Of a stretch of 64,000 bases of DNA, positions 13,759 through 29,322 are shown piece by piece. Made by a program: the position numbers and the translations under genes. The notes beneath the pieces are model-generated. The model did no database searches. It saw nothing but the letters and a program-made list of their open reading frames with translations, and was not told where the DNA came from. Source of the DNA: a virus; the IMG/VR virus record IMGVR_UViG_3300049427_000004, positions 96,001 through 160,000 of that record; one strand, written 5' to 3'. The first letter of the stretch is position 1. Each line of letters begins with the position of its first letter.

Positions 13759-15999
13759 CTACTCATTCTTCAACATGCTCTCCAAAAATGTCTGTCTTCT
13801 CAAATTATCCACCTTACGCATAGCATAATTCAATGTCTCAGCTTGAGTTAAAATGATACAATAGTCAACAGCTCTCGTGATCGCAGTATAGATTAAGTTG
13901 CAGCTTAACTGGAATTTATGAGATCTGTCTGCAATAATCAAAACAGCCTTACTACTACTCCCTTGACTCTTGTGACAGGTTATACTCCAAGCATGGATCA
14001 ACTGGTTCATCTCATCTAATGACAATTTAACTGTATCATCATCAAATTCAATGATAGTTCCTCTAGGGTCAACCATTATCTCATCTTCATTTCCTTCTTC
14101 ATCTTGAACATACTTTATGTATTTTTCACCTTCTAGGACAATGTTCTGTATTGTTCCACTATCTCCATTTACAATCGTGACTGCTTCGCCTTCATCATTT
14201 TCAATTCCATATGTATTTTTTACATTCATAACATAATCATCTTGTCTAAAGGTCATATAGTCACCGTACTGATATTCAACCTTGGCTTCTGTTTTAGGAT
14301 TAACAAGTTCTTGAACGTACTTGTTAATTTCCACCGTACCGATTTCCCCTTTTTTCGTGGGAGTTAATACCATGATATCCATAGGGTCAAATTTATTGAG
14401 ATATTTTTTGTAATAATGTTTGTATCCATCTTGCATATGATTTTGATCAACACAATGAATGATTAGATTTTCGCCAAACTTCTTCACACCTGAGAAATTG
14501 TCGTCAATGAATTTCTGCTTCATTCGCACACGGCTTGCTATATCAAGAATGCCACCTTCACTTTGGCGAAACACAATATCCAACATAGTCGCTGGAATCA
14601 CTTTGCTTTCAATTGCATCGTGCAATATATTTCCGCCCATGACCGCAGCAAGCTGAGCAGAGTCACCGCAAAATAATATCCTTGCTTTTGGATTAGTTAT
14701 TTTAGATAATAGCATCTGCATTATGAAGATATCAGTCATCGACATCTCGTCTACCACAATTACATCAGCGTCAACTTATATCAATTGTCTTTGCTCTTTG
14801 TCTTTTCCATATCCAATAGCTCTATGTATAGTTTGTGCTTGCCTTCCTGTATAACTTGACAATAGTTTGGCAGCTTTACCTGTAGGAGATAGTAAAACAT
14901 AACTCATTCCTAACTCCTCTAATAATTCAACAAGCAATCTTTGCATCTGAGTTTTCCCTGTACCAGCATATCCTACTAATAGTGAGGCAGAATGCTTTTT
15001 AACATTATGAAAAAATTCCTTCTGTTGCTCAGACAAACCATGTTTTAAGGTATCTTTATATTTGACTTCCATGCGATGTATAAATTCATTTGGGTCAAAA
15101 TTTAATTCCATAGAATTATGAAGCATTTGTTTTAGTTTTGTTGCTATGTGTTTTTCAGCTTGATAAGTTTTCAATAAGGCAATCTTATCACCAATAACAA
15201 TAATTCCTTCTGTATTTTTAATTTGTTCGTTTATTAAATTTTCATTGATATCTAAGTTGTCGATAGCTGCTTTAACCATTTTGTCAATTATCATATATGT
15301 ATGACCTTCTTGCTGATTGTTCTCTAGTGTATATTTGATTCCAGATTGAATTCTGAATGGATGATCGAAAACAAACCCCATCTTACGTGCAATGATATCT
15401 GCTTTCTTGAATCCTATTCCACTCACTAGCTCACAAAGGCAGTAAGGATTGTCTTCAATCTTTTGAATAGCTAATTGCACACTTTCAAACTTCTCTGCAA
15501 TTTTCATAACTACATTGTATGTAATTCCATATCGACCAAGTTTAGATAGTAAGTCTCTATGTTCGATATTTTCTAAAACTTTTTTACGTATCTGTTTATA
15601 TGTCTTTTCACCTATACCCTTAACCAATTTAGAATTGAACTTGTCATCCACAATCATTTGGATAATATCCTCGTTTAGATACACTTTAAATAATTCTTCA
15701 ACCTGTTTATCTGTTAAAAGATACCTAAAGAATGATTTTTGATCCTCACCTGAAGATGGCATATCTTGATATATGGAATGACACTCATAACTTGCACCGT
15801 ATTGTGGATGAACCTCGGTTAACTCTACATTGGCAACATACTCCACTCCTAAATCTAAACGCTGCATGACTCCCTTTATTGATGCATTACTGTATTTATT
15901 AAGTTGTATCGCATGGTCTTTGGTGGTACATGAATAAATGCGAAAATCACCTTTATTGAATATCATTTTAATTGGTGTTAATTTAGTTTCAATTATCAT
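13759..15999 (-). pseudogene. recD2: RecD2-like SF1B helicase interrupted by an in-frame TAA at 14778-14776
   Basis: Walker A GYAGTGKT and LSPTGKAA in the 5' part; the frame continues QRQLI*VDADVIVVDEMSM into motif II, then GDSAQL, FRQSEG, HAWSITCHKSQGS and YTAITRA. Confidence 0.85.
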
Positions 16000-17155: not shown

Positions 17156-18217
17156 TTAAGCGTCAATCATGTCTTGTATGGTTAATCCTAGTTTCCGATA
17201 AGCATTAGGATCATGTTCTTTTAATAATTTAAGCAATTCATCTTTATCGACTAGACTGAATACTGCCTCATCAAAGCTTTTCATCATTCTTATTCCTGCT
17301 AGACGACCCTGATCCACATTCTTATCAGTGTAATGATCTACGAGAACCTGAATAGACCTATGTCCCGTTTGGCGAGCAGCCATATAAACATCTCCGCTAC
17401 TTTCTAATTCATAACATGCTCCAACTTTTCTCAAACTATGGGTTGTAATTCTATCCTCTTTAGGAATACCCATCTTCTCAGCGAGACGTTTAACACAATC
17501 ATTTACACTATCAACAGTAAGATTAACAAACACTTTATCAGTGTTTACTGTATTCTCAGTCTTAAGTTGAATCAATTTCTCGTAAAGGTCTTTTTCAAAT
17601 GGAGAAACTGAATACTCATCTCCTTTGTCTAATACTTTTACATTGTAGAAGTCAGTCTTCTTATTGAATTTAATATCTGCCCATGTTGCGGATAACAAAG
17701 CATCAACACGAACACTTGTGATAGCTGCTAAAAGTATGTACAAGTGTTTTTCGAATCCATGGAATTTTTCTTCCAATGCAAGTTCTGCCATAACCTTTAC
17801 TTGCTCTACGCTTAACACACCATAGCTTTTAAAATTAACCTTAAGCGGTTTAACTGCAAAGGCAATATGCTCAACATCATATCCGTAACCTTGAAGCTTC
17901 TTATATACAGTTTTTAGTCCTGCCATTTTCTTATTCACTGTTGCTGGTGCTTCAGGATGCTTCTTTTTAAGGTGATTTCTGTATTTTGTAGTGTGCTTGA
18001 GTGTGATTTTCTCTTTAATTGTACCGTCAGTGATAAATTCCACTTCGTCTTTTGTCATTTCGTTAATTTCTTTGCCATGATAAAACTTAAAAAACTCAGT
18101 CACACACCTGTAGTATTCTTTTTTAGTTTCATCTTTGTAGTCATTCAATACAGTCATAATATCCGTGTACACATTGTTTACTCCAATATTTTGTACTTCT
18201 GCTAACATTTCAACCAT
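17156..18217 (-). CDS. tyrosine recombinase (SPbeta YopP-like)
   Basis: R-K-HxxR-H-Y set: TSVRVDA, LDKGD, THSLRKVG, TGHRS, DHYTD. Confidence 0.85.
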   Translation of the reverse strand: MVEMLAEVQNIGVNNVYTDIMTVLNDYKDETKKEYYRCVTEFFKFYHGKEINEMTKDEVEFITDGTIKEKITLKHTTKYRNHLKKKHPEAPATVNKKMAGLKTVYKKLQGYGYDVEHIAFAVKPLKVNFKSYGVLSVEQVKVMAELALEEKFHGFEKHLYILLAAITSVRVDALLSATWADIKFNKKTDFYNVKVLDKGDEYSVSPFEKDLYEKLIQLKTENTVNTDKVFVNLTVDSVNDCVKRLAEKMGIPKEDRITTHSLRKVGACYELESSGDVYMAARQTGHRSIQVLVDHYTDKNVDQGRLAGIRMMKSFDEAVFSLVDKDELLKLLKEHDPNAYRKLGLTIQDMIDA

Positions 18218-18262
18218 CTCCCATTCCCAACGTTATATTTTCCAATTTCTTCTTGTGTCTTT

Positions 18263-18291
18263 ATTATATATTCGTCGGGAATAGATGTCAA
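18263..18291 (-). promoter_or_regulatory. perfect consensus sigmaA promoter of the recombinase
   Basis: TTGACA-17-TATAAT on the minus strand. Confidence 0.85.
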
Positions 18292-18458
18292 CACATTACC
18301 ATCTATATTTAAATATTTTATTTATATACCCACTCATACAAATTCCCTTCTCCATTTTCAGCTCTCCACTAATTCAACCTTACCCTGTTCCATCTAAATT
18401 TATATATCCACTTACACAAAATCAGACTCGAAATTGAAATTAGCCTCTTACTCAATCC

Positions 18459-18665
18459 TCACCAGAAATCCCTAATCCGAACATCATACCCTTTACCGCG
18501 AAGATAACTTATTACCCTCACGATGGTTTCTTCGTATGGCTCGTAATCATTGTCGCTACATAACCTTGTCGCTGTGTTTTTATTGATGGGCAGCTCACCC
18601 TGTTTGACACCATTCGAATTGCACCACTTACCAAATTTGGTTTGTTGTTTTCCTAATCCATACAT
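18459..18665 (-). CDS. small XRE-like HTH protein of Bacillus mobile elements
   Basis: MYGLGKQQTKFGKWC...NKNTATRLCSDNDYEP...IRDFW family pattern; SD AAGGGGTGG. Confidence 0.75.
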   Translation of the reverse strand: MYGLGKQQTKFGKWCNSNGVKQGELPINKNTATRLCSDNDYEPYEETIVRVISYLRGKGYDVRIRDFW

Positions 18666-18689
18666 CTAATATCCACCCCTTCATACAAC

Positions 18690-18719
18690 TAGGATGGACA
18701 TTCTTTGAAAAATTTATAC
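18690..18719 (-). promoter_or_regulatory. sigmaG-type (forespore) promoter
   Basis: Minus strand GTATA-N18-CATCCTA, against the B. subtilis sigmaG consensus GHATA-N18-CATACTA. Confidence 0.6.
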
Positions 18720-18852
18720 GCTAATATAAAAAACCACAGGAATAATGACCAAGCATGTCGATATATGCTATATCATCAAGCGCAAACAACACGACACAAC
18801 ATCAAACAAGAGCATCCACTCAAAGAAAATATCTCAAAGGAGGATTGAATAT

Positions 18853-19137
18853 ATGCAAGACTATTTTCAACACGTTGCTAATTCATTGACTCATGACGAC
18901 ATGAAGGTTTTGGCTATTCTCATGGACAACGAAGCAAATGCTGGATTCAAAGCAATGAAGAACGCCGATGTCTTACCTGCCACGCAGTTATCGGAAGCAA
19001 CTTATCGTCGAATTATCTACCGTCTTAGTGCCAACAAATTTGTCGAAATTGTCACTCAACAAAAAATGCACATGCTTTACATTACTGAATTTGGAATGAA
19101 TGCAATTCGAACCACAGTGAATGGAGTTGGTGCTTAG
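18853..19137 (+). CDS. winged-helix protein, TubR-like adaptor candidate
   Basis: Start moved to ATG 18853 behind SD AGGAGGA; helix-turn-helix-wing QLSEATYRRIIYRLSANKFVEIVTQQKMHMLYITEFG; overlaps the tubZ start. Confidence 0.6.
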   Translation: MQDYFQHVANSLTHDDMKVLAILMDNEANAGFKAMKNADVLPATQLSEATYRRIIYRLSANKFVEIVTQQKMHMLYITEFGMNAIRTTVNGVGA

Positions 19138-20234
19138 TGCTTGCTGTAATTGGCTTAGGTCAGGCAGGATCAAACATTTCCGAAGAGGTTGGTAAATACG
19201 GAATATTGAATGGAGCAATAAATTACAGTCAGAAGGATCTCGATGCAGTTGAGGTTAAGCACAAACTCAGACTACTCGGCTCTGAGGGCGTAGGAAAACA
19301 GAGGTTTGATGCAATTAGTCTATTTCAACACCAATGGGAAACTGCAATTAACTTCATTCGTGACAACTTCAGTAATTCAAAGGTCATTGCATTCGCATTC
19401 TCTTCATCAGGAGGATCTGGTTCAGGAATTAGCCCAATACTGCTCGACATGGCTATCCAGATGTTCCCTGATAAAGTGTTCATTTCTCTAGTGGTTATCC
19501 CTGAGATAAAAGAAGCAGAGTCTAGCCAAGTAAATTGTGTTTCGACATTTGAGGAGTTATCTGCTTTAGATGTCGCGGTCTTTCCTGTCGACAACCAACA
19601 AATCCGTAATCAAAATCCTACTGTTGGAAAAAATCGACTTTATGAAATCTCAAATCAAGAAGCTGCTTCCCTCATTTGTAAATTGGCTGAATATACAAGT
19701 AAACATTCTAAAAACGGGAATTTCGATGAAAAGGATCTCTTAACTGTACTAAGAACACGAGGATTAGCAACAATTTCTGAAACACAACTATCATCATCTC
19801 TCCAAAGTATCAATCTCACATCTGAGGGTGTAGCAGATAAAGTCATCCAATCATGGGATAATTCAGTTTTTGCCCCACTTTCATCAGACAGTGTTCAAAA
19901 AGCAGCTGTCATATTTGACGGATCAGAATCTCTTATGGATTTCATTCGAGTAGAGACCTTATTTGAATCCTTTCAAAATCAACCAGTAGATATTTTCGAG
20001 GGATATTATCACGAAGGTAAAGGAAAGATACTGACGGTCTTAACAGGGCTTAAATGGTCATTTAAGAGGTTAGATGATATTGAAAAATCACTTATTAACA
20101 AGCAAAATCATGATGAAAGTGGGATTTCATCTGATATCGGTTACAAGGTTGATTCAAGCATTATTAGAGCATCTGCTAAGAAACAAGAAAAGAAAGTATC
20201 AGTAATGGATATTCTAAGCAAATACAATCGCTAA
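19137..20234 (+). CDS. tubZ: tubulin/FtsZ-family GTPase (TubZ/PhuZ-like)
   Basis: N-terminal VIGLGQAGSNI, signature loop SSGGSGSG, GVGK..DA, FPVDN, NFDEKDL. Confidence 0.85.
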   Translation: MLAVIGLGQAGSNISEEVGKYGILNGAINYSQKDLDAVEVKHKLRLLGSEGVGKQRFDAISLFQHQWETAINFIRDNFSNSKVIAFAFSSSGGSGSGISPILLDMAIQMFPDKVFISLVVIPEIKEAESSQVNCVSTFEELSALDVAVFPVDNQQIRNQNPTVGKNRLYEISNQEAASLICKLAEYTSKHSKNGNFDEKDLLTVLRTRGLATISETQLSSSLQSINLTSEGVADKVIQSWDNSVFAPLSSDSVQKAAVIFDGSESLMDFIRVETLFESFQNQPVDIFEGYYHEGKGKILTVLTGLKWSFKRLDDIEKSLINKQNHDESGISSDIGYKVDSSIIRASAKKQEKKVSVMDILSKYNR

Positions 20235-20260
20235 AACAAAATTAGAGGAGCGTGTTTATT

Positions 20261-20419
20261 ATGACAATGAAACAAACTATGAAAACTTTGATGGATCTTA
20301 AAAATAACGGAGTAGATATTTTCTTAACAGATGCTGGTTGGTCTTTATTAGTGAGGATTACTGCTGAACTGGAGAAGAACGAGGAAATTTCGGGAGAAGA
20401 TACAGATCAAGCGGTATAG
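20261..20419 (+). CDS. small acidic protein, 52 aa (not in ORF track)
   Basis: MTMKQTMKTLMDLKNNGVDIFLTDAGWSLLVRITAELEKNEEISGEDTDQAV*; SD AGAGGAG. Confidence 0.6.
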   Translation: MTMKQTMKTLMDLKNNGVDIFLTDAGWSLLVRITAELEKNEEISGEDTDQAV

Positions 20420-20431
20420 GACGGTGATAAC

Positions 20432-20602
20432 ATGAAAAAAAGAAATATATTGATCGCTGCAATCATGGTTGGTGTATATATTACTCTCCCTGCTTATCGC
20501 TATTATGCCATTGGAAGCTATATTGGTTATAAAATCTTAGCTGATAAACAAAATGGCTATAAAGTTGTTGCAAGAAAGCAAAAGAAACTCATTAAGGCTT
20601 AA
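20432..20602 (+). CDS. small membrane protein, 56 aa (not in ORF track)
   Basis: MKKRNILIAAIMVGVYITLPAYRYYAIGSYIGYKILADKQNGYKVVARKQKKLIKA*; SD GGACGGTGA. Confidence 0.6.
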   Translation: MKKRNILIAAIMVGVYITLPAYRYYAIGSYIGYKILADKQNGYKVVARKQKKLIKA

Positions 20603-20615
20603 TGATAAGTCATTT

Positions 20616-20654
20616 GAGGGTAGAAAACGACAAAAGGACATCCTTTCTACCCTC
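20616..20654. terminator. hairpin ending the tubZ operon
   Basis: GAGGGTAGAAA ... TTTCTACCCTC 11-bp stem. Confidence 0.55.
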
Positions 20655-20777
20655 TAGAACTCAAGAGTAGACTGTGGGCTATGTTATTGGGTCATCTCTT
20701 CCCCCAATATATTCGCATCCGTCAAAAAAAATGCATGTCATGCTTGTAACATTAGAAATTATATAGGAGTGATAACA

Positions 20778-21176
20778 ATGGCTAGGATTGAGTCAATGAC
20801 AATCAGCCAATTTATGAACCCTAATTACAATACTGAAAAAATATTAGATCCTCTCATCCGATTTTTAGATAAACACAAAGTAGTCTTTAGAGTTGTGGGC
20901 GTTACATTGATAATCTTTTCATCTGGTCTATTGGATACATCAGTATTTGCAGCAACAGGTATTGATGAAGGAGCAACAAAAATATATGAGAAGCTTATTA
21001 ATGTTGGAAAATGGGTCATTATCATTAAAGGTGGATGGGAGACCATCAATAACACCATCAAAGGAGATTTTGATACTGCTAAAAAATCATTTCTCCAGTA
21101 TTTAATTATATATGTAATACTTCTTGCTTTTCCTTGGGCTATGTCAGAGGTTGATGTTCTATTTCGTGATATATAG
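20778..21176 (+). CDS. membrane protein, pilin (VirB2/TrbC)-like topology
   Basis: Hydrophobic leader ending SVFAA followed by two further hydrophobic helices; SD AGGAGTGA. Confidence 0.55.
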   Translation: MARIESMTISQFMNPNYNTEKILDPLIRFLDKHKVVFRVVGVTLIIFSSGLLDTSVFAATGIDEGATKIYEKLINVGKWVIIIKGGWETINNTIKGDFDTAKKSFLQYLIIYVILLAFPWAMSEVDVLFRDI

Positions 21177-21187
21177 GGGGTATCCAA

Positions 21188-21484
21188 ATGATTATTAAAA
21201 TAAATCACATTCCCCTATCTGATATTGCAGATTCATTGTTCTTTCCTGAAGAAGCAAAAGAAACCGTTAAAGAATGGGCGAAAGAACAAGTGCAGGAAGC
21301 CATTATGGGAGCATTAGAAGCCATAAAAGAAGTTCTAGTCGATTTGAGTTTTAGCTTAGCATTAGTAGGAGGTGTATTATGTGTCCTGTTCTGGGTTGTA
21401 GGCTGGAAGGACGGTAAGAGGTGGGCAGCAATACTATTCCTTGCTAATGTGTTAATAAAATTACTTCTTGGTGGTGCTGCATAA
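21188..21484 (+). CDS. two-TM membrane protein (VirB2/VirB3-like size)
   Basis: LSFSLALVGGVLCVLFWVVGW and WAAILFLANVLIKLLLGG; stop overlaps the ATPase start. Confidence 0.65.
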   Translation: MIIKINHIPLSDIADSLFFPEEAKETVKEWAKEQVQEAIMGALEAIKEVLVDLSFSLALVGGVLCVLFWVVGWKDGKRWAAILFLANVLIKLLLGGAA

Positions 21485-23883
21485 TGAAAAAATCAATAAA
21501 ATTGAGCGATTATATTCAAATTATTAGGCCAGAATACGTCTTTCTTAAGCTTAAACCTAATAATTCCATCAGAAATAATGGAACCCATAAGGTCGCAAGA
21601 GCCATTAGTGGATTGTATAGGAATGTTTTTGAAAGCATTAAGCGTGAAGAAGAGAAACTGGTAAAGTTGTTTGGCAAAGAATTTATATTACCTACCAAGA
21701 TCAGTATCCACCCAAATATAAAAGTAGGATACTTAATATACATGGAAAAGAAAAAAGTGGATTTTTATCTAATTGTGCCAAAAACTCAATTATCATTTAT
21801 CAAAGAAAAAATTAGTGATGTCTGGACTAATATTACTATTGATCAGATTGCAGTACTCCCCTGTTTTACTGACAATTCAACTAAGCACCAAATTATATAT
21901 AAAAAAGAAGACGGATTGAGTTTAGCAGTAGATAGAAGAAATAACGAATTATTGAACAGTAATCTGAATGTTGTTGAGATGCTGGAGGAAGGTGATCGAG
22001 TTGGCGTTTTTTACAACTTCCTCCCTTCAACTCAACATGGTTGGAAGTTTAAACACAAAGCAACAATTGATAAATATAAAAGTGGTAAACCTGTGGATCG
22101 CAATAAAGCTGGTTGGTCTTATATTCTTAGGTGGGGTGCAGCTACTATCGATGGAGTCTTAGCGTCTTTCGCGGAAGCAATATCAGGCAGTGATGGTAAA
22201 TCCAAAAGTAAAGATGAAGATGACGTAGGATTGTTAACAAAATTATTTGAGGGAATGAACGGACAAAAGAAACTAAGCGATTGGTCATTAAAAAAGGGGA
22301 ACTCTTCTACCCTTCCGCTACAAATTGTGACCATGACAGATAGCACAGACAAAATTCGCGAGAGAAATATTTCAAGAAGTCTAGCTCAAAGCTTTGATAC
22401 AATCAGTGAGGATAATGAATTAATTTATAAACCCTTTAAAAAAACATTTAACTATACAGATTATTCTATTGGCGCAGAACGTAACTGCATAGGTGATGAG
22501 GAAGCTCAAAATTTCCTGTCTTTGGCAGGAAGAGATGTGCTAGAGAGATATAATTTTATTGAAAAAGTAGAAACAAATGAAACAGAAGTTCCAGAAGATC
22601 TACAACAAGGAGTGATGTGTATTGGTGAAAATATATATCGAGGCAAAAAACAACGAGCCTTTTTAAGCAATGATATTGAATTTAGAAATCTCCTACTATT
22701 ACTCATTGGCCCCACTCGCGCAGGTAAAAGTAATTTAATTAGCCATTTAAGTATAGATGCAATTGAAAATGGCGAGTGCGTGATTATTTTCGACTTTATT
22801 GAAAACTGTGAATTAAGTGATAGTGTCGCAAAGCTTTTTCCAAAAGAAAAAGTATTGGAAATAAGGTGTGATGATTTTAACGCTATGCAAGGACTCGGAT
22901 ACAATGAAGTCGGTAAAAGCAATGACACTTTCAAGCAATATGAAAACGCTAAGCGTCAAACTACAAATGTGCTCACATTAGTCAATTCAATTAATGCGGA
23001 TGAAAGTCGATTAAGTCCTAAGATGGAACGATATTTAGAAAGTGCTAGTCTAATCGTTTTTATTAGCAATGGAAGCATAAAGGATGTATTTGGTGTTCTT
23101 ACTAATTTTAAAATCAGATATCAGTATCTTAAAAAAGTTCCCATGACTCAGTTTGAAAATTTAGAAGAATACATTGATAACTTGCATGAGCTTGATGAAA
23201 CTGATAAAGAGGGATTGGTTACTGGAACAAAAACAAATCTTATCGTAGGAATTATTGACCGACTAAACACACTTAAGCGAAATACCTATATGGAACTCAT
23301 GCTTAAAAAAGATACATCGAAGAACATTGACCTTAGCGAAGAAATGCAAAAAAATCAATTAATTGTTGTTCGGATGCCTCAATCGATGTTCACTGTTGAT
23401 AGCGAACGAGATGTCTACACTCTCTTCTGGTTAAGTAAACTCTGGCTTGCAGCTCAGGTTCGAGCGGAAAGAATCAAGGATAAGACTAAGAGAACAAAAA
23501 TTAATCTTGTTATTGATGAATTGTATCAAGTGTCGAATACCGAGAAATTTCTAACAACCAAACTATCTCAAATGGCTAAATTCATTGTGAAGCCAATAGT
23601 TAGTTGTCACTATATAAACCAGTTAAAACATATGAGAGATGAATTAAGAAGTGCTAATACTTCATACATGCTCTTAGCTGGATCAGATAAGAAAAATTAT
23701 GACGAATTAAAAAACGAACTATTTCCATTTACTGATGAAGATCTTAAAGATATGAAACGATATTACTCGATGAACTATGTAAAAAACAAAGACGGATACT
23801 CTCGGTTCATTACTGCTTTACCAGATAAAGTAGAAAAAAGAATCAAAAAAGGAACGGTGAAAACAGATGATATTAAAAATTAA
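21484..23883 (+). CDS. P-loop ATPase of the FtsK/HerA/VirB4/VirD4 superfamily
   Basis: Walker A IGPTRAGKS, IIFDF, Walker B LVIDE, HYINQL; large N-terminal domain. Confidence 0.8.
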   Translation: MKKSIKLSDYIQIIRPEYVFLKLKPNNSIRNNGTHKVARAISGLYRNVFESIKREEEKLVKLFGKEFILPTKISIHPNIKVGYLIYMEKKKVDFYLIVPKTQLSFIKEKISDVWTNITIDQIAVLPCFTDNSTKHQIIYKKEDGLSLAVDRRNNELLNSNLNVVEMLEEGDRVGVFYNFLPSTQHGWKFKHKATIDKYKSGKPVDRNKAGWSYILRWGAATIDGVLASFAEAISGSDGKSKSKDEDDVGLLTKLFEGMNGQKKLSDWSLKKGNSSTLPLQIVTMTDSTDKIRERNISRSLAQSFDTISEDNELIYKPFKKTFNYTDYSIGAERNCIGDEEAQNFLSLAGRDVLERYNFIEKVETNETEVPEDLQQGVMCIGENIYRGKKQRAFLSNDIEFRNLLLLLIGPTRAGKSNLISHLSIDAIENGECVIIFDFIENCELSDSVAKLFPKEKVLEIRCDDFNAMQGLGYNEVGKSNDTFKQYENAKRQTTNVLTLVNSINADESRLSPKMERYLESASLIVFISNGSIKDVFGVLTNFKIRYQYLKKVPMTQFENLEEYIDNLHELDETDKEGLVTGTKTNLIVGIIDRLNTLKRNTYMELMLKKDTSKNIDLSEEMQKNQLIVVRMPQSMFTVDSERDVYTLFWLSKLWLAAQVRAERIKDKTKRTKINLVIDELYQVSNTEKFLTTKLSQMAKFIVKPIVSCHYINQLKHMRDELRSANTSYMLLAGSDKKNYDELKNELFPFTDEDLKDMKRYYSMNYVKNKDGYSRFITALPDKVEKRIKKGTVKTDDIKN

Positions 23884-24106
23884 CGGCTCACCAATTAGTG
23901 AATCTATCAGTGTATGTGAGGACGGTTTGAATTTCAACTTGGATCTTTGTGATTTGTATGATATTGTTCACACACCTGTTAATGTGGACATCTCTTATAA
24001 TGGTCATAATATTATCAATGGAGACATCAATACATTTAATTGGGCGCAGTCTGGAGTTGAAAAAATTGGTGACGGAATAGGATTAATAATCGATCATTTA
24101 TTCTGA
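23867..24106 (+). CDS. hypothetical protein
   Basis: 79-aa ORF overlapping the ATPase 3' end, followed by hairpin 24105-24129. Confidence 0.5.
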   Translation: MILKINGSPISESISVCEDGLNFNLDLCDLYDIVHTPVNVDISYNGHNIINGDINTFNWAQSGVEKIGDGIGLIIDHLF

Positions 24107-24158
24107 GGAGTCCCAAAAGGACTTCTCTTCCCTTTTTAAAAGCGAAAAATTAAAATCA

Positions 24159-24224
24159 TTGACAAATCTTTGGAAATGATGTTACATTGATCTTGCAAAC
24201 AAGAGATAAATATTCTTGATTTGC
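24159..24224 (+). promoter_or_regulatory. sigmaA promoter plus downstream inverted-repeat operator for the RNAP operon
   Basis: TTGACA (24159) -18- TACATT (24183); GCAAACAAGA-N9-TCTTGATTTGC at 24195-24224. Confidence 0.6.
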
Positions 24225-24280
24225 CGAATCTTATTAGAGAGGGTTGATTAAATAAAAAATATGAAAAAGGTGATTTTAAG

Positions 24281-24493
24281 ATGGGGAATCTATCAAGGTT
24301 GACGTGGCAGGACGCTTACTATGACGGTAATATTGACGAACGTTATGAAGTATTTTGCGAAGAGAATCAGAATACATATGCAAGAAAAGGGAATGACGGA
24401 TGGGACACACATACCAGCAGCGACAAGAGGTATGAAGATGATTTTTCATATGAACGAAAGTTGATGAGTGGAGAAATAAAACGGATTAGGTAG
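24281..24493 (+). CDS. hypothetical protein
   Basis: 70-aa ORF, SD AAGGTGA. Confidence 0.6.
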   Translation: MGNLSRLTWQDAYYDGNIDERYEVFCEENQNTYARKGNDGWDTHTSSDKRYEDDFSYERKLMSGEIKRIR

Positions 24494-24505
24494 GTGAAAC
24501 TATAG

Positions 24506-25795
24506 TTGGAAAGCAATTATGTTAAATTGTGGTTTGCATATGATATTAATAACCAAATAACCTACATATCAAGTATTAATGAATCTAACAAATACAATAC
24601 ATATAATTGTCCTATTTGCTCATCTACCGTCATACCAAAAGCGCTTAATTCATCAAAAGTTGCATCTCATTTCGCCCATGACGATTCGACTCAGTGTAAT
24701 TCAGAGACAATGATTCACTGGTGGTTTAAAAACAAATTTATTGAATGTGGCGATAGAATAATAATCCATGGACAAGATAAAACATACATCTGTTCTGAAG
24801 TAATTGTTGAACAATCAATACATACTTCTCATGGCATTTATCGCCCTGACATTACGATCAAAACAAAATGTAGCGAAATTATATATTTTGAAATGAATTA
24901 TCGAAATAAGAAGAAAACTGAAGATTATATAGATAAATGGTTAGAGTTAAAGAAAACAGTTGTAGAAGTAGACATTAAAGACTTGTTGTTAGGTAATGAA
25001 GCATCTAGCTTTACTCCCCTTTTCTCCAATGGAAAGATAATTAATTCTAAGAAGAATGATACATATTACAATACCATCGGTAAGTATAAAGAAATTGTTC
25101 TGTATGATTTTGTCACAGATGAGCAAAAGAAAAGAATTGAAAAATTGGATTGGTTATGGCGTGAAATAACAAATTATAAACTCGGAACCATTTCAATAGA
25201 TCGTATTTCCCTAATTATCGATTCCATTGATCAGGAAGGCAGAGGCGTTGTAGATGAGGTGCTAAAGTCAGCAAAATGCAGTAAACTTTATAAAGATTAT
25301 AAAAACTATAAAAAACAATTTGAAGAACTCCAACTAGATTTTACTCCAGAAGACCTAACTAATAAAGTATCATTTGTGAATGAAAATCAATGCATTAATC
25401 CTTACGAATTAAAATTAGTTAGTACCAAAAAATACAAATCAGAAAGTTATTATAATGGCAGCAGAAAGCATATGTATAAAACAAGACAATATTTTAGCCA
25501 CTACACTTTTTCAGTGGTACTGAAGTGTAAAGAAAAAATAATTAATCGTATTTCAGTATTAAATAAAGATTATGAGAAACTTGTTAATACAAATTTTCTC
25601 ACTGAATGGACTATTCAAATTACAAAAAACCATAAGATTGGTAACAGATGCGTAGAATGCAATAAGGTATTTAATATGGAGTTTAAAGAGTTGAAGTATT
25701 ATTCAGACAAAAATTTTAAAATTCCAAAACGTTGCCCTGTATGTAAAAGTAAAAGAAAAAACAATCAAGATCGGAGGACTTCTATTATTGAGTAA
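24506..25795 (+). CDS. CoiA-like zinc ribbon + PD-(D/E)xK nuclease-like protein with C-terminal zinc ribbon
   Basis: YNCPICSSTVIPK..HFAH; YRPDITIK..IYFEM; C-terminal CVECNKVF..PKRCPVCK. Confidence 0.65.
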   Translation: MESNYVKLWFAYDINNQITYISSINESNKYNTYNCPICSSTVIPKALNSSKVASHFAHDDSTQCNSETMIHWWFKNKFIECGDRIIIHGQDKTYICSEVIVEQSIHTSHGIYRPDITIKTKCSEIIYFEMNYRNKKKTEDYIDKWLELKKTVVEVDIKDLLLGNEASSFTPLFSNGKIINSKKNDTYYNTIGKYKEIVLYDFVTDEQKKRIEKLDWLWREITNYKLGTISIDRISLIIDSIDQEGRGVVDEVLKSAKCSKLYKDYKNYKKQFEELQLDFTPEDLTNKVSFVNENQCINPYELKLVSTKKYKSESYYNGSRKHMYKTRQYFSHYTFSVVLKCKEKIINRISVLNKDYEKLVNTNFLTEWTIQITKNHKIGNRCVECNKVFNMEFKELKYYSDKNFKIPKRCPVCKSKRKNNQDRRTSIIE

Positions 25796-28568
25796 ACAAA
25801 AATCCAGTTTAAAATACATATTTAAAATCAACTCGTCGCGAATAAGAAGTGCGAATTGGAATCTTAACCTATCCTCTTCTGAAGCATTTAAAAACGAGGA
25901 AATTGTTTCATTAGCTGATAGCACAACTCTTAGATTCATAAGGAATATCAAAGGTCTTAATGATGATGAAATTGAAAATCAAGTTAAAGTAACAAAAAAA
26001 CAAATTAAAATATTAAAATCATATCCTACAACACCTGAACATAGAAAGAATATCAGAAAACAGTACGATTTATTGTTCGATTTGACGTTTGTCAAGGATT
26101 ATATATGCATTGTTATGGACAGCAATAAAGACTTTGACAGGTTGAATAGCAAAAAAGGATTCTATATAAACGGCGTTAAATTTAAACGACTCTTGGCTAC
26201 AACAGGAGGAGCAAAAAATAGCACCGTTGTATACGTAAGTGATTTGATACATAGCGAGTTAAATATACGTCTAGAAAACGGTAGAGATGCAAGCAAACCT
26301 TTTGTTCCAGCTAAGCTTGAGGCCTACAAGTCTCTAGCATGCAGCGCAAGCGTCACAGTACCAAATCCAACAGGAATTTTAGTTGTGAATGACTGCGTAA
26401 CAAATTTCACTTCGGACATAGTCAAGATTGATGACACCTATGGTGAGTATCCTTCAATGACATATGAAAAAGACAGCATAGTAGAGTTAAATGATAGTGA
26501 TGGATATGGTTTGATCCTCCCTTCTCTCAGCAAGCATTGGGCCGAATTTTTAGGAGAAGATTACACCCCAAGTGGTTATTGTTTGAGGGGATCATTTACA
26601 AAGGGTATGGTTTTTAGTTTTGACTTTCTTGATTTTGCGAATAAAATATCTGGAACAACTAAAGTCATAGATGCTTGGGGAAATATGAAGGATTTAATTG
26701 ATGATCAGATTCAATTAATTCTAACAACTTCTATGTTAAAACTGTGGGACAGTTACAACAACATTGAACATTACCTGCGTTGTTGTGATGAAAACGGTTA
26801 TGAATGGAGTGTCACCAAGGTAATACCGAAGCAGCTTGAAAATGAAAGAAATTTAAACTACCAATTCATACAATCTTTAAATCTCAGTGACAATGATATT
26901 GATGAATTAATTGAGCCTACAATTACAGAAATCAAAGATGTTCTAAGTGAAGATTGGAGAAAAAGTCTGCTGTTCTTAAAAGGATCGCATTTACATGATA
27001 AGAGCTTTACACAATCGGATAGTGATTTCTCAAAAGCACTAATGGTAGACAAAGAAATGATAAAAGATCCATTTGTAAGAACAAGAATACATAATATGAC
27101 TAAAAAAAGAATAAACGATGCCAAAACAGGAGTTCTCAGAGTAAAAGGAAATTTTTCTATTGTTTCAGGAGACCCGTATAGCCTCTGTCAGTCGATTTTT
27201 GGTATGGAGGTTACGGGATTACTCAAGGCAGGAGAATTTTATTCGAATTACTGGAATGAAAAGAATATTGATAAGGTGGCATGCTTTAGAGCGCCAATGA
27301 CATGTCACAATAACATACGAATACTTAGATTTAAAAATACTGAAGTTATGAACTATTGGTATCAGTATATGAGCACTGTTACAATTTTTAACTCATGGGA
27401 TACGACAGCTCACGCCTTAAATGGTTTGGATAAAGATGGCGATTCAGTAATGACTACCCCATCCCCTGTCATCCTTAGGGCAATTAGAGAGTTAGAAGCA
27501 ATCTTATGTGTACAAAAAACAGCAAATAAAATCATTGCCACAGAAGATGATTTTATAAAAGCAAACAAGAACAGTTTTGGAGATGCCATAGGTTCTATAA
27601 CCAATCGAATCACATCTATGTTCGACGTTCAAGCAAAGTATGACAGAGCAAGTGAAGAGTACAAGGAATTAGAATACAGAATTATCTGTGGTCAGAATTA
27701 TCAGCAAAACGCAATAGACAAGTCTAAAGGAATCGTAAGTAAAGCGATGCCAAAAGATTGGTATGATTACAAATCAAATATGCCTTCTAATGATGAAGAA
27801 GAAGATATTAATGAGCAAAGGGATTTTAATATAAGCATCTTAGCTGATAAAAAACCGTATTTCTTCTCATACATATATCCACATTTGATGAAGCAGCATA
27901 GACTATACATAGCAAATACAACCAAGAATGCTTACAAACGATTCGATCTAAGTGTTGAAGAATTAATTGCAAAAGAAGGTAAAAATGAAGATGAAGAGAA
28001 TTTTCTAAAGTTTTATCATTATAAAACTCCTCTTTCAATGGCTGATTCAGTAATGAATAATATTTGTCGTAAAATTGAGGGTGAGTTTGATAACGTTAGA
28101 GTCACCCTCAAGAAAGTTGAATTTGATCATACAATACTTATGAGTAACGCTACTTATACTAAGGGTCGGTTTGCAGCTATAAAGGAACTTTATAAGCAAT
28201 ACCTCACTCAGGTTAGGGAATATGTAAAATCATCTAAGTCGATGAAAATTGATAAAGATGAGCGACAAAGTAAACGTGCTGAATTTGTGGAATCCTTTAA
28301 AAAAGAAGCATCAATGCTTTGTAATTGTATAGAGGAGCTAACCAATATTGTAGTTGAAGTTTGCTACAGCAACGGAAGCGATAATTCTAAGCAATTTGCT
28401 TGGGACATATGTGGAGAACAAATGATCAAAAATTTACTTAAGAGGAATAATAATACGATCCACTACCCCGTATTGGATTCACTTGGAGACATCGAATTTG
28501 GTGGAGAAAAATTTAAATTAGTTTCTAATGTATTGGAGGATTGCGATATTGAAAGTAGTTTTAAATGA
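25788..28568 (+). CDS. yonO: single-subunit phage RNA polymerase (SPbeta YonO family, RdRP-like double-psi barrel)
   Basis: 926 aa; catalytic NGLDKDGD (27429-27443), CFRAPMT, SDGYG, QNAIDKSKG motifs; position before HU as in SPbeta. Confidence 0.9.
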   Translation: MSKQKSSLKYIFKINSSRIRSANWNLNLSSSEAFKNEEIVSLADSTTLRFIRNIKGLNDDEIENQVKVTKKQIKILKSYPTTPEHRKNIRKQYDLLFDLTFVKDYICIVMDSNKDFDRLNSKKGFYINGVKFKRLLATTGGAKNSTVVYVSDLIHSELNIRLENGRDASKPFVPAKLEAYKSLACSASVTVPNPTGILVVNDCVTNFTSDIVKIDDTYGEYPSMTYEKDSIVELNDSDGYGLILPSLSKHWAEFLGEDYTPSGYCLRGSFTKGMVFSFDFLDFANKISGTTKVIDAWGNMKDLIDDQIQLILTTSMLKLWDSYNNIEHYLRCCDENGYEWSVTKVIPKQLENERNLNYQFIQSLNLSDNDIDELIEPTITEIKDVLSEDWRKSLLFLKGSHLHDKSFTQSDSDFSKALMVDKEMIKDPFVRTRIHNMTKKRINDAKTGVLRVKGNFSIVSGDPYSLCQSIFGMEVTGLLKAGEFYSNYWNEKNIDKVACFRAPMTCHNNIRILRFKNTEVMNYWYQYMSTVTIFNSWDTTAHALNGLDKDGDSVMTTPSPVILRAIRELEAILCVQKTANKIIATEDDFIKANKNSFGDAIGSITNRITSMFDVQAKYDRASEEYKELEYRIICGQNYQQNAIDKSKGIVSKAMPKDWYDYKSNMPSNDEEEDINEQRDFNISILADKKPYFFSYIYPHLMKQHRLYIANTTKNAYKRFDLSVEELIAKEGKNEDEENFLKFYHYKTPLSMADSVMNNICRKIEGEFDNVRVTLKKVEFDHTILMSNATYTKGRFAAIKELYKQYLTQVREYVKSSKSMKIDKDERQSKRAEFVESFKKEASMLCNCIEELTNIVVEVCYSNGSDNSKQFAWDICGEQMIKNLLKRNNNTIHYPVLDSLGDIEFGGEKFKLVSNVLEDCDIESSFK

Positions 28569-29322
28569 ACAAGAGTTAATTGATCAGTCTCTTCTAAATA
28601 AGACATTCGATGAAAATAATTATGGGACTATTCTTAGAGTCCTAGCCAAACATTATTTCTCAATTGGCATGGATCAACAACAGGTCAAGGATACTTTGGT
28701 TTCTCATATAAGAGTTCGAGTAAAACAATACATACATAAGGAATGGAATAATCGTATTGATTATGCAGTAAAATCCGTAAAAAAATATGGCTATGAATTG
28801 GTTGATATTCGTGAGGTCATTATTACCATGAGTGAATTAACCACTCTTAAAAGCATCAATGACAATGATCTTGAGAAAATTGCATTTGTATATCTAATTT
28901 ATGGTAAGATATTTAATCAAATAAAAAAGACAAACGACAATTGGGTAAACATTAAAATTAAAGAAGTACTGGTTGATGCAAAAATAAATAAAGGCTATAA
29001 ATCAACAAGAGAACAACAAAGAGCCTTGCGAATATTAAATGAGCTAGGAATATTGAGAAGTTCAAGGAAAGTGGATAACACCAGTGAGCGAGTGTGTTTT
29101 ATTGATGAAGCAAGTGAGCCTGTAATCAAGATCAGTGATTTCAGGGATTACGTTCTAGAATATTTAAAATGGAAAGGTGAAAATGTAGGTAGTTGTGAAT
29201 CGTGTTTCAAGCTAATTCAAGTGCAAAGTAATCGGAAAAAATACTGTAACATTTGCTGGAAAGATAAGTGGAAACAGTATAATGCAGAAAAACAGAGAGA
29301 ATATAGAAACAAAAAATTGTAA
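28549..29322 (+). CDS. conserved-looking hypothetical protein downstream of RNAP, C-terminal Cys4 finger
   Basis: TTG start behind GGAGG; CESCFKLIQVQSNRKKYCNICWK. Confidence 0.7.
   Translation: MKVVLNEQELIDQSLLNKTFDENNYGTILRVLAKHYFSIGMDQQQVKDTLVSHIRVRVKQYIHKEWNNRIDYAVKSVKKYGYELVDIREVIITMSELTTLKSINDNDLEKIAFVYLIYGKIFNQIKKTNDNWVNIKIKEVLVDAKINKGYKSTREQQRALRILNELGILRSSRKVDNTSERVCFIDEASEPVIKISDFRDYVLEYLKWKGENVGSCESCFKLIQVQSNRKKYCNICWKDKWKQYNAEKQREYRNKKL

Follow-up and report, generated by a model that had tools for sequence, protein, structure and literature searches.

Why would a tailed phage carry a tubulin-type partition pair directly in front of an operon for small membrane proteins and a large ATPase, and could the two act together on the phage genome? 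The arrangement is found at positions 18459 to 24127 of the stretch of DNA analyzed here (the window, 64,000 nucleotides [nt] in length, bases 96,001-160,000 of one 178,866-bp IMG/VR virus record), where a TubR-TubZ pair is followed by a separate operon encoding a 132-amino-acid (aa) protein, a 98-aa protein, a 799-aa ATPase and a 79-aa gene product. A preliminary description, made from the letters of the window and a list of its open reading frames (ORFs), had placed tubRZ, two small transmembrane (TM) proteins, the 799-aa ATPase and the 79-aa gene at this locus, and every one of these genes was confirmed. We consider it highly probable that the parts are a type III TubR-TubZ pair and a minimal inner-membrane core of a type IV secretion system (T4SS). 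The joint action of these parts is a more tentative matter: our favored explanation, to which we assign a probability of roughly 0.45, is that the TubRZ pair and an autonomous VirB4 core position, hold or pass the phage DNA.

The record has a G+C content of 34%, a single tRNA and an estimated completeness of 93%. It encodes a large terminase of the SPbeta/YonF-like type, a tape measure protein and the remaining set of a tailed virion, and the phage is a large, SPbeta/Tyrovirus-like one. Around the locus the genes follow the order known from Thrax1 and other Tyroviruses, namely, RecD-like helicase, tyrosine recombinase, filament gene, small genes and ATPase. Since the closest homologues of the ATPase (71 to 72% identity) sit in Paenibacillus genomes, the host is probably a Paenibacillus. 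A nucleotide search of the 5.8-kb block against phage and plasmid collections gave no match. A search of sequencing runs listed no RNA data set; the one run listed is probably the source metagenome.

A minimal VirB4 core

The ATPase has the Walker A motif GPTRAGKS and the Walker B motif VIDELY, with residues G414, K415, D678 and E679 invariant across 80 homologues of 21 to 72% identity. Searches of Pfam and NCBIfam, including CagE_TrbE_VirB/AAA_10, returned only subthreshold matches (nSTAND3, TrwB_AAD_bind and SXT_TraD), a profile search of the PDB found weak P-loop matches only, and a single-sequence PDB search was uninformative. The assignment comes from structure prediction. An AlphaFold model built from the alignment of the 80 homologues (predicted local distance difference test [pLDDT] of 89.9) was compared by Foldseek, and the eleven best matches of the full-length model were all R388 TrwK/VirB4, with E values down to 2.6e-13. 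The C-terminal domain (residues 368 to 787) had Thermoanaerobacter VirB4 (4AG5) as its best match (VIA Z of 27.5), followed by TrwB (Z of 25.6), DndH-C (Z of 25.6) and HerA (Z of 24.4). The N-terminal domain, folded alone (pLDDT of 90.5), matched only TrwK at an E value of ≤0.001 (E of 3.5e-4), and its superposition on R388 TrwK/VirB4 had a VIA Z of 15.0 (root mean square deviation of 3.6 over 232 residues), the next fold being at a Z of 8.3. By the predicted fold of both domains, the ATPase is of the VirB4 type, too diverged for membership in the sequence family. Assignment as a VirD4, FtsK or HerA protein was set aside, as the N-terminal domain matches VirB4 specifically; of the broader label first given to the gene (FtsK/HerA/VirB4/VirD4-type), only the VirB4 part is retained.

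The order of the operon, a pilin-like protein, a small TM protein and VirB4, is that of virB2-virB3-virB4. The first gene is a 135-aa ORF (p135) that more likely starts at an internal ATG, giving 132 aa. Its product begins with a hydrophobic leader that ends in a conserved FA/A, keeps a GKW motif across the family and has a TM segment at the C terminus, which fits the layout of VirB2/TrbC pilins, namely, a long leader with an AxA-type cleavage site and two hydrophobic segments. The VirB2-like leader and hairpin proposed before hold as a layout, and similarity to the TrbC profile stays below significance: Pfam TrbC (PF04956) matched 1 of 57 members of the p135 family (E of 0.016), and an hhalign comparison of the family with 12 Bacillota TrbC proteins gave a probability of 7% (pairwise P of 0.005; controls, P of 0.03). 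The nearest named ESM-Atlas clusters, TrbC (0.88) and Maff2 (0.87), are a lead only.

The second gene (p98), whose stop overlaps the ATPase start (TAATG, 21482 to 21486), had no match in Pfam. It aligns at 32 to 47% identity with the C-terminal 95 residues of 211- to 216-aa fusion proteins from related prophages, in which the N-terminal part is an M23 peptidase domain with intact HxxxD and HxH motifs. Judged from these alignments, p98 is homologous to the C-terminal membrane anchor of the M23 peptidase fusions. A complex prediction for p98 and the N-terminal domain of the ATPase scored 0.00 and was uninformative either way. Elsewhere in the phage genome, at bases 84,976 to 85,437 of the record (minus strand), about 31 kb upstream of the cassette and about 11 kb before the window start, there is a stand-alone 153-aa M23 peptidase with both motifs intact, which shares 33 to 40% identity with the M23 parts of the p98-family fusions of other phages. 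This may be the detached hydrolase of the cassette. The absence of a cell wall hydrolase, claimed from the window, is therefore correct next to the cassette but not for the genome.

Other T4SS components were searched for in all six frames of the whole record (93% complete) with hidden Markov models (HMMs). There was no match to the relaxase families MobA_MobL (PF03389), Relaxase (PF03432) or Rep_trans (PF02486), nor to VirD4 (T4SS-DNA_transf, PF02534), for which the control matched in 5 genomes. VirB6 (TrbL, PF04610) was not matched either, and no large polytopic ORF stands beside the cassette. Replic_Relax (PF13814) gave no match in a weak search whose control matched nowhere; an HMM made from the Replic_Relax proteins of CP-51 and Thrax1 found nothing in this genome or in 132 surveyed loci. 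The preliminary description had noted the lack of a relaxase and of a VirB6-like channel, had concluded that this is not a conventional conjugation locus and had asked whether the missing genes lie elsewhere on the element. By these searches none does in the 178,866-bp record, and that conclusion is supported.

The TubR-TubZ pair

TubZ matches the TubZ structures of phage c-st (3V3T/4XCQ) with an E value of 2.8e-18, and residues 37 to 125 of TubR match the TubR structure 4ASN (phmmer E of 1e-16). From these matches to solved proteins we take the pair to be genuine. The start of tubR is probably the ATG at 18854, behind the strong ribosome-binding site AAAGGAGG, rather than the one at 18745; the relative L003 has a 94-aa gene at the same position. 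The pair resembles the TubZRC type III partition systems of Clostridium phage c-st, pBtoxis and pBM400 also in its tubR-tubZ order and in having short repeats upstream, here a weak tubC candidate, and differs from them in that no TubY-like gene was recognized. A second difference is that close relatives are in chromosomally integrated prophages, so that classic plasmid partition may not be the role of TubRZ here. Of the two micro-genes that close the tubZ operon, the 55-aa one belongs to a family that recurs in TubZ loci only (6 loci).

Distribution of the cassette and its filament genes

The survey comprised 80 viral and 44 genomic loci plus annotated phage and plasmid regions. Related loci were fetched with a 12-sequence ATPase alignment, and their ORFs were labeled by family HMMs built for the survey; counts are given for the 93 distinct loci whose upstream sequence reaches 3.5 kb or more. 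The p135 family was found directly upstream of the ATPase in 92 of the 93, and the p98 anchor family was present in 84, with its position upstream of the ATPase kept; the gene overlaps are retained along with the order. An M23 domain occurred in 50/93 loci when any position was counted (fused or adjacent in 43, just downstream in 7), and in about half of the relatives the p98-type protein serves as membrane anchor to an M23 wall hydrolase that looks active. The trio of p135, p98 and ATPase is a conserved unit derived from type IV secretion.

The filament gene is a less constant companion. A gene for an actin-like protein (Alp) stands upstream of the ATPase in 35 of the 93 loci and tubZ in 5. 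In these 40 loci (43%) the filament gene starts 1.6 to 3.5 kb before the ATPase, mostly on the same strand, while 53 loci (57%) have no filament gene, and the link to tubulin, originally described as a coupling, is therefore optional. As a neighbor of the cassette, a filament gene is, in our judgment rather than by a measured background rate, far commoner than chance would make it. Two of the TubZ-bearing loci (L089 and L090) and two of the Alp-bearing ones (L004 and L132) are inside chromosomal contigs of 1.0 to 6.4 Mb, from which it follows that filament genes are kept in integrated prophages, which need no plasmid partition. In the loci lacking a filament gene the cassette usually comes after endolysin and holin, and a few loci carry ParA. 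A SIR2-domain protein or an ATP-dependent DNA ligase is encoded just upstream of the cassette in some cases (L069:4362-6005 and L020:4778-5668), which suggests that the site is also an accessory or defense hot spot.

The ATPase was found in 34 phage records, every one of them from Bacillus, Geobacillus-type, Brevibacillus, Alicyclobacillus, Clostridium or Terrisporobacter, and 43 of 44 genomic loci are titled as endospore-forming genera or as Bacillota/Clostridia metagenome-assembled genomes (MAGs). The genera carrying the cassette are endospore formers, and the restriction to phages of spore formers, anticipated in the preliminary description, was borne out by this neighborhood survey. One locus, L124 (JAUZPB010000037.1), belongs to a binned Bacteroidota MAG and has an Alp gene and the full cassette, with 42% identity in the ATPase; it is probably a misbinned Firmicute phage contig. 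Plasmid matches to the ATPase were Clostridium phage-plasmids, many of about 55 kb, and in PLSDB 34 of 35 matching plasmid records, including those of phage-plasmid size, are typed as nonmobilizable. In a sample of 400 Bacillota genomes, the ATPase was found in 3 besides the center genome. Phage genes for actin-like proteins are in turn nearly limited to the Bacillus group, 204/211 records being named Bacillus phages.

A conserved hairpin element precedes the cassette

New here is a conserved, hairpin-bearing element of about 70 nt that precedes the cassette in 48 loci. Its parts are a GGCTAGG-like box, a covarying hairpin, an invariant TAT(G/T)C (TATGC in the window), a spacer of about 17 nt and an invariant TGCnnGT (AATGCAnGT). 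At an E value of ≤0.001 there is one copy per locus in 48 of the 52 sources searched, and with a sequence-only model the element is nearly always just before p135 and on the p135 strand. Five loci with an Alp gene have it in the opposite orientation, upstream of that gene and between small genes that converge or diverge, so a role as 5' leader of p135 does not hold for every copy. A search of CP-51 and Thrax1 with the model of the element found no copy.

Among the 48 realigned copies, 78.6% of the stem cells pair, compared to 58.5% in shuffled and 27 to 44% in slid alignments, and double changes were seen in 7 of 8 pairs (84 cells versus 28 expected); the alignment is model guided and fitted to the structure, so that it leans toward pairing, although the margin is large. 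RNAalifold predicted no pairs on the raw MAFFT alignment, because the register of the hairpin shifts between groups, and an Rfam search of window positions 18000 to 24600 gave no match. Our best guess is a 5' leader RNA, since the 3' box abuts the ribosome-binding site in many loci; an operator or other DNA site is the alternative. Compared by eye with the consensus promoters of sigmaA, E, F/G, K, H, B, D, 54 and the extracytoplasmic function (ECF) class, the element did not fit in spacing. Together with the hairpin that separates the cassette from the tubZ operon, this upstream element of its own indicates that the cassette is regulated as a unit rather than as the tail of the tubZ operon.

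The block had earlier been thought to be headed by a sigmaG-type promoter on the divergent regulator. The motif in question, GTATA-N18-CATCCTA, starts at 18719 (minus strand), ahead of the divergent gene for the 68-aa product. One instance was counted in the window, where shuffled sequence has 3.1 ± 1.3, and four relatives with TubZ lack the motif in the corresponding region, so this promoter has to be given up as a chance-level, unconserved match.

Relationship to described systems

The nearest known machinery is the core encoded by TrwL-TrwM-TrwK of R388 and VirB2-VirB3-VirB4 of Agrobacterium, which shares with the cassette the gene order, an ATPase of about 800 aa that overlaps a small TM gene and the VirB4 fold of both ATPase domains. 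A wall hydrolase accompanies relatives of the cassette, as in known T4SSs, where VirB1 in Agrobacterium and the LytM-containing PrgK in pCF10 are examples. In contrast to these systems, the window cassette is without VirB6, VirB8, VirB9-11, VirD4 and relaxase, its proteins have no Pfam-level membership in VirB2, VirB3 or VirB4, and cassettes of its type were found in tailed phages only. Minimal DNA transfer machines offer an analogy: in the crenarchaeal Ced importer, where VirB4/HerA-like CedB works with small membrane proteins, and in Streptomyces TraB/Spd, DNA is moved by one hexameric ATPase and a few small membrane proteins with neither a full T4SS nor a relaxase. TraB is FtsK-like and has its own TM and DNA recognition domains, unlike the window ATPase.

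Distant relatives in phages have already been noted in print. The "plasmid-like region" gp11-gp18 of Tyroviruses (Thrax1-5, Tsamsa and others) was read as probably acquired from a conjugative plasmid, its ATPase not being classified as VirB4 by the authors (PMC9703825). In Thrax1 the region comprises ParM, small genes, a 160-aa membrane protein, an M23-anchor protein, a 50-aa gene, a 935-aa "type IV secretory" ATPase and a replication-relaxation protein. The Thrax1 ATPase is a whole-length homologue of the window ATPase (alignment from residue 2 to 683, E of 7e-14, 19% identical), and by hhalign its M23-anchor protein matched the p98 family with a probability of 99.9% and its 160-aa protein the p135 family with one of 49%. 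Tyroviruses also share the neighborhood with a RecD-like helicase and a nearby tyrosine recombinase, and Thrax1 resembles the window relative L003 in having HU and a YlaK/PhoH-type gene downstream. They differ in that the window has TubR-TubZ instead of ParM and a ribbon-helix-helix (RHH) protein and is without a fused or adjacent M23 domain and a Replic_Relax gene.

The second published string is the "DNA translocation operon" of 0305phi8-36 (orf200-207), in which genes for a relaxase and a VirB6-like protein stand together with those for an actin-like protein and a coupling-type ATPase without TM segments (PMC3357382), partial versions of which were described in SPO1 (gp27.3-27.9) and others (Pathria et al. 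2012, PMC3357382). Like the window locus, it is a phage operon uniting a filament gene, a TM-less conjugation-type ATPase and membrane proteins. The ATPases of the SPO1 group and CP-51 match that of the window (SP8, E of 5e-6 over 88%; CP-51, 9e-12), an Alp gene lies 1 to 3 kb from the ATPase in their loci, and CP-51 carries the same gene string with Replic_Relax. However, a MobC/Replic_Relax relaxase and a VirB6-like protein are the defining parts of that operon, and the searches here found neither; its filament is an actin in lytic myoviruses where the window has a tubulin. With distant homologues described informatically in 2012 and 2022 (PMC3357382 and PMC9703825), the module is not the new system that had been suggested; the window cassette is a relaxase-less, tubulin-linked and M23-unlinked relative of published Bacillus phage gene strings. 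Literature searches for a function of phage VirB4 or of a forespore translocase found nothing specific.

What the module may do

In the working that we propose, TubR would bind the upstream repeats and TubZ filaments would move the bound phage DNA. The ATPase would dock at the membrane via p98 and hydrolyze ATP to assemble or drive a small conduit of the pilin-like p135, which may span the membrane and, with the M23 hydrolase, the wall. The filament system would carry the phage DNA to the site of the conduit, where the DNA could be held at, or passed across, a septum, be it the sporulation septum or the one between sister cells. Our confidence in the function of the module is modest, and for DNA handling as such it stays somewhat short of even. 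A bolder version, which we regard as unlikely, has a cytomotive filament (tubulin or actin) delivering the phage genome to a VirB4-driven conduit by which double-stranded DNA is tethered or passed, from sister cell to sister cell or through the sporulation septum, independently of the virion and under the control of the previously undescribed leader element; this would explain the classical spore "carrier state" of phages such as CP-51 and SP-10.

Several observations argue for cooperation between filament and ATPase. Two unrelated filament families, actin and tubulin, replace each other in the same slot, also in integrated prophages, and the cassette is restricted to spore formers. In CP-51 and Thrax1 the distant homologues are followed by a predicted nicking protein of the Replic_Relax type. 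The homology of p98 to the M23 fusion anchors, the M23 domains in over half of the loci and the stand-alone M23 peptidase in the genome point to an envelope-spanning role. Other facts weigh against it. Canonical VirB4 is an assembly ATPase and not a DNA pump, and with no relaxase, coupling protein, VirB6 or VirB8 found, the usual DNA route of a T4SS is missing. Sequence comparison gives p135 no significant similarity to TrbC pilins. Most loci are without a filament gene; in these, the cassette comes after the lysis genes, where accessory genes are typically placed. With the sigmaG-like motif lost, the sporulation link is drawn from host distribution alone, and deletion of the analogous operon in 0305phi8-36 caused no growth defect (PMC3357382).

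The alternative that survives best, although we think it rather doubtful, is that TubRZ and the cassette are independent neighbors and that the cassette is an envelope accessory, active in superinfection exclusion, defense or wall remodeling rather than in handling the phage's own DNA. The filament-less majority, where the cassette lies between the lysis genes and the integrase, beside a SIR2-domain gene or a DNA ligase, would be expected from this, as would the separate upstream element and the dispensability for lytic growth of the 0305phi8-36 operon (PMC3357382). The C-terminal domain of the ATPase also resembles the defense ATPases HerA and DndH/DptH (Z of 20 to 25.6), and PADLOC returned mad8 (7e-8); however, this match is at the P-loop level only and no membership in a known defense system was found by PADLOC, while the N-terminal domain matches VirB4 specifically and not HerA. 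Independence also sits poorly with the recurrence of two filament families in one slot, even in integrated prophages, and with the relaxase-like gene in the distant homologous strings.

Two further explanations are each improbable. In the first, the phage genome would pass between cells in contact, in the form of a plasmid or an excised circle, by a minimal conjugation with an unrecognized or host nicking enzyme or as double-stranded DNA. T4SS-derived parts with a wall hydrolase, the Replic_Relax gene of the distant relatives and the many homologues on Clostridium phage-plasmids would suit such transfer, and a single-copy hairpin-plus-box element by the cassette resembles a transfer origin in its general look. 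However, the components for transfer were not found, nearly all of the matching PLSDB records are nonmobilizable, and the element is absent from the relaxase-bearing CP-51 and Thrax1 and abuts the ribosome-binding site like a leader in most loci. In the second, the cassette would build a short pilus-like fiber or secrete a protein (for adhesion, biofilm or effector delivery), with a cargo other than DNA. In T4SSs, VirB4 drives pilin extraction and pilus assembly with VirB3, and the layout of p135 and its nearest ESM-Atlas clusters are pilin-like. Against this stand the lack of significance of that likeness, the lack of an effector or adhesin candidate conserved with the cassette and the recurrent filament genes, which it leaves unexplained. 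Inovirus-style extrusion, raised at the outset, has in its favor a membrane ATPase with small membrane proteins and nothing further, and its chance is negligible given a genome with large terminase, tape measure and tailed virion and an ATPase of the VirB4 fold rather than the Zot/pI type.

If the filament and the membrane ATPase do work together as we favor, they would represent a new type of cell biology in phages. How phage genomes enter and persist in spores is a long-standing question, which the module makes testable. With three genes, the cassette is the most compact natural assembly around a VirB4 to have been seen and could help to show the action of VirB4 in isolation, and the conserved hairpin element gives a handle on the timing of its expression.

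Features of the locus and neighboring genes

Table 1. Features of the TubRZ-VirB4 locus. Positions are those of the window unless a survey locus is named.
Feature	Position	Strand	Remarks
68-aa divergent small gene (earlier "regulator")	18459-18665	-	ORF; no significant Pfam or PHROG match
Candidate tubC centromere iterons	18783-18809	+	2.7 copies of the 10-bp unit CAAACAACAC; Tandem Repeats Finder score 33, weak
tubR, winged-helix centromere binder	18854-19137	+	ORF reaches up to 18745; Shine-Dalgarno-backed ATG at 18854
tubZ, tubulin/FtsZ-family GTPase	19137-20234	+	Pfam Tubulin, 1.9e-12; phrog_17961, 7e-19
Two micro-genes closing the tubZ operon	20252-20602	+	ORFs; an acidic one of 55 aa and one of 56 aa that is hydrophobic near its N terminus and Lys-rich in its tail
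Hairpin, 11-bp stem without T-run	20616-20654	+	GAGGGTAGAAA...TTTCTACCCTC; between tubZ operon and cassette; read from sequence
Conserved cis element, about 70 nt	20673-20742	+	Covariance-model match, 49.8 bits, E of 1.2e-10
p135, small membrane protein	20778-21176	+	Leader VFA/A, C-terminal TM segment (hydropathy); VirB2/TrbC-like in layout only
p98, 2-TM protein in VirB3 position	21188-21484	+	Two TM segments; overlaps ATPase start
799-aa VirB4-type ATPase (predicted fold)	21484-23883	+	N-domain 13-357, P-loop C-domain 368-787; phrog_5156 (unnamed), 1.2e-84
79-aa gene	23867-24106	+	Overlaps ATPase end by 17 nt; outside the conserved core
Terminator-like hairpin with T-run	24105-24127	+	Closes the cassette operon
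Further copies of the cis element	L003:7193-7263, L004:6684-6752, L025:6853-6921		Plus 44 more loci
Inverted cis elements	L011:4877-4947, L092:311-381, L101:4516-4586, L104:5228-5297, L120:4232-4302	-	Alp-bearing loci

The features of the locus are collected in Table 1. Relatives of the 79-aa gene were found in 2 loci only, the window and L003. Upstream, a tyrosine recombinase (17156 to 18291, minus strand; XerA/XerD-like, E of 2e-21) adjoins the partition genes and has a perfect TTGACA-17-TATAAT promoter at 18291 to 18263; the Thrax1 cassette is likewise flanked by a tyrosine recombinase. Farther out, at 13759 to 15999 on the minus strand, a RecD2-like helicase is present as two ORFs of 332 and 407 aa, 18 nt apart, where L003 has a single gene of 746 aa; a frameshift, a stop codon or a sequencing error may lie behind the split. 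Right after the cassette, at 24506 to 25795, follows a gene whose 429-aa product combines an N-terminal domain of the CoiA type (competence protein family) with a treble-clef zinc motif at the C terminus; the 72% relative L003 lacks it. The next two proteins, of 926 and 264 aa (25788 to 29322), had no family match in Pfam, NCBIfam or PADLOC; they are kept in L003 (917 and 253 aa) and do not accompany the cassette elsewhere.

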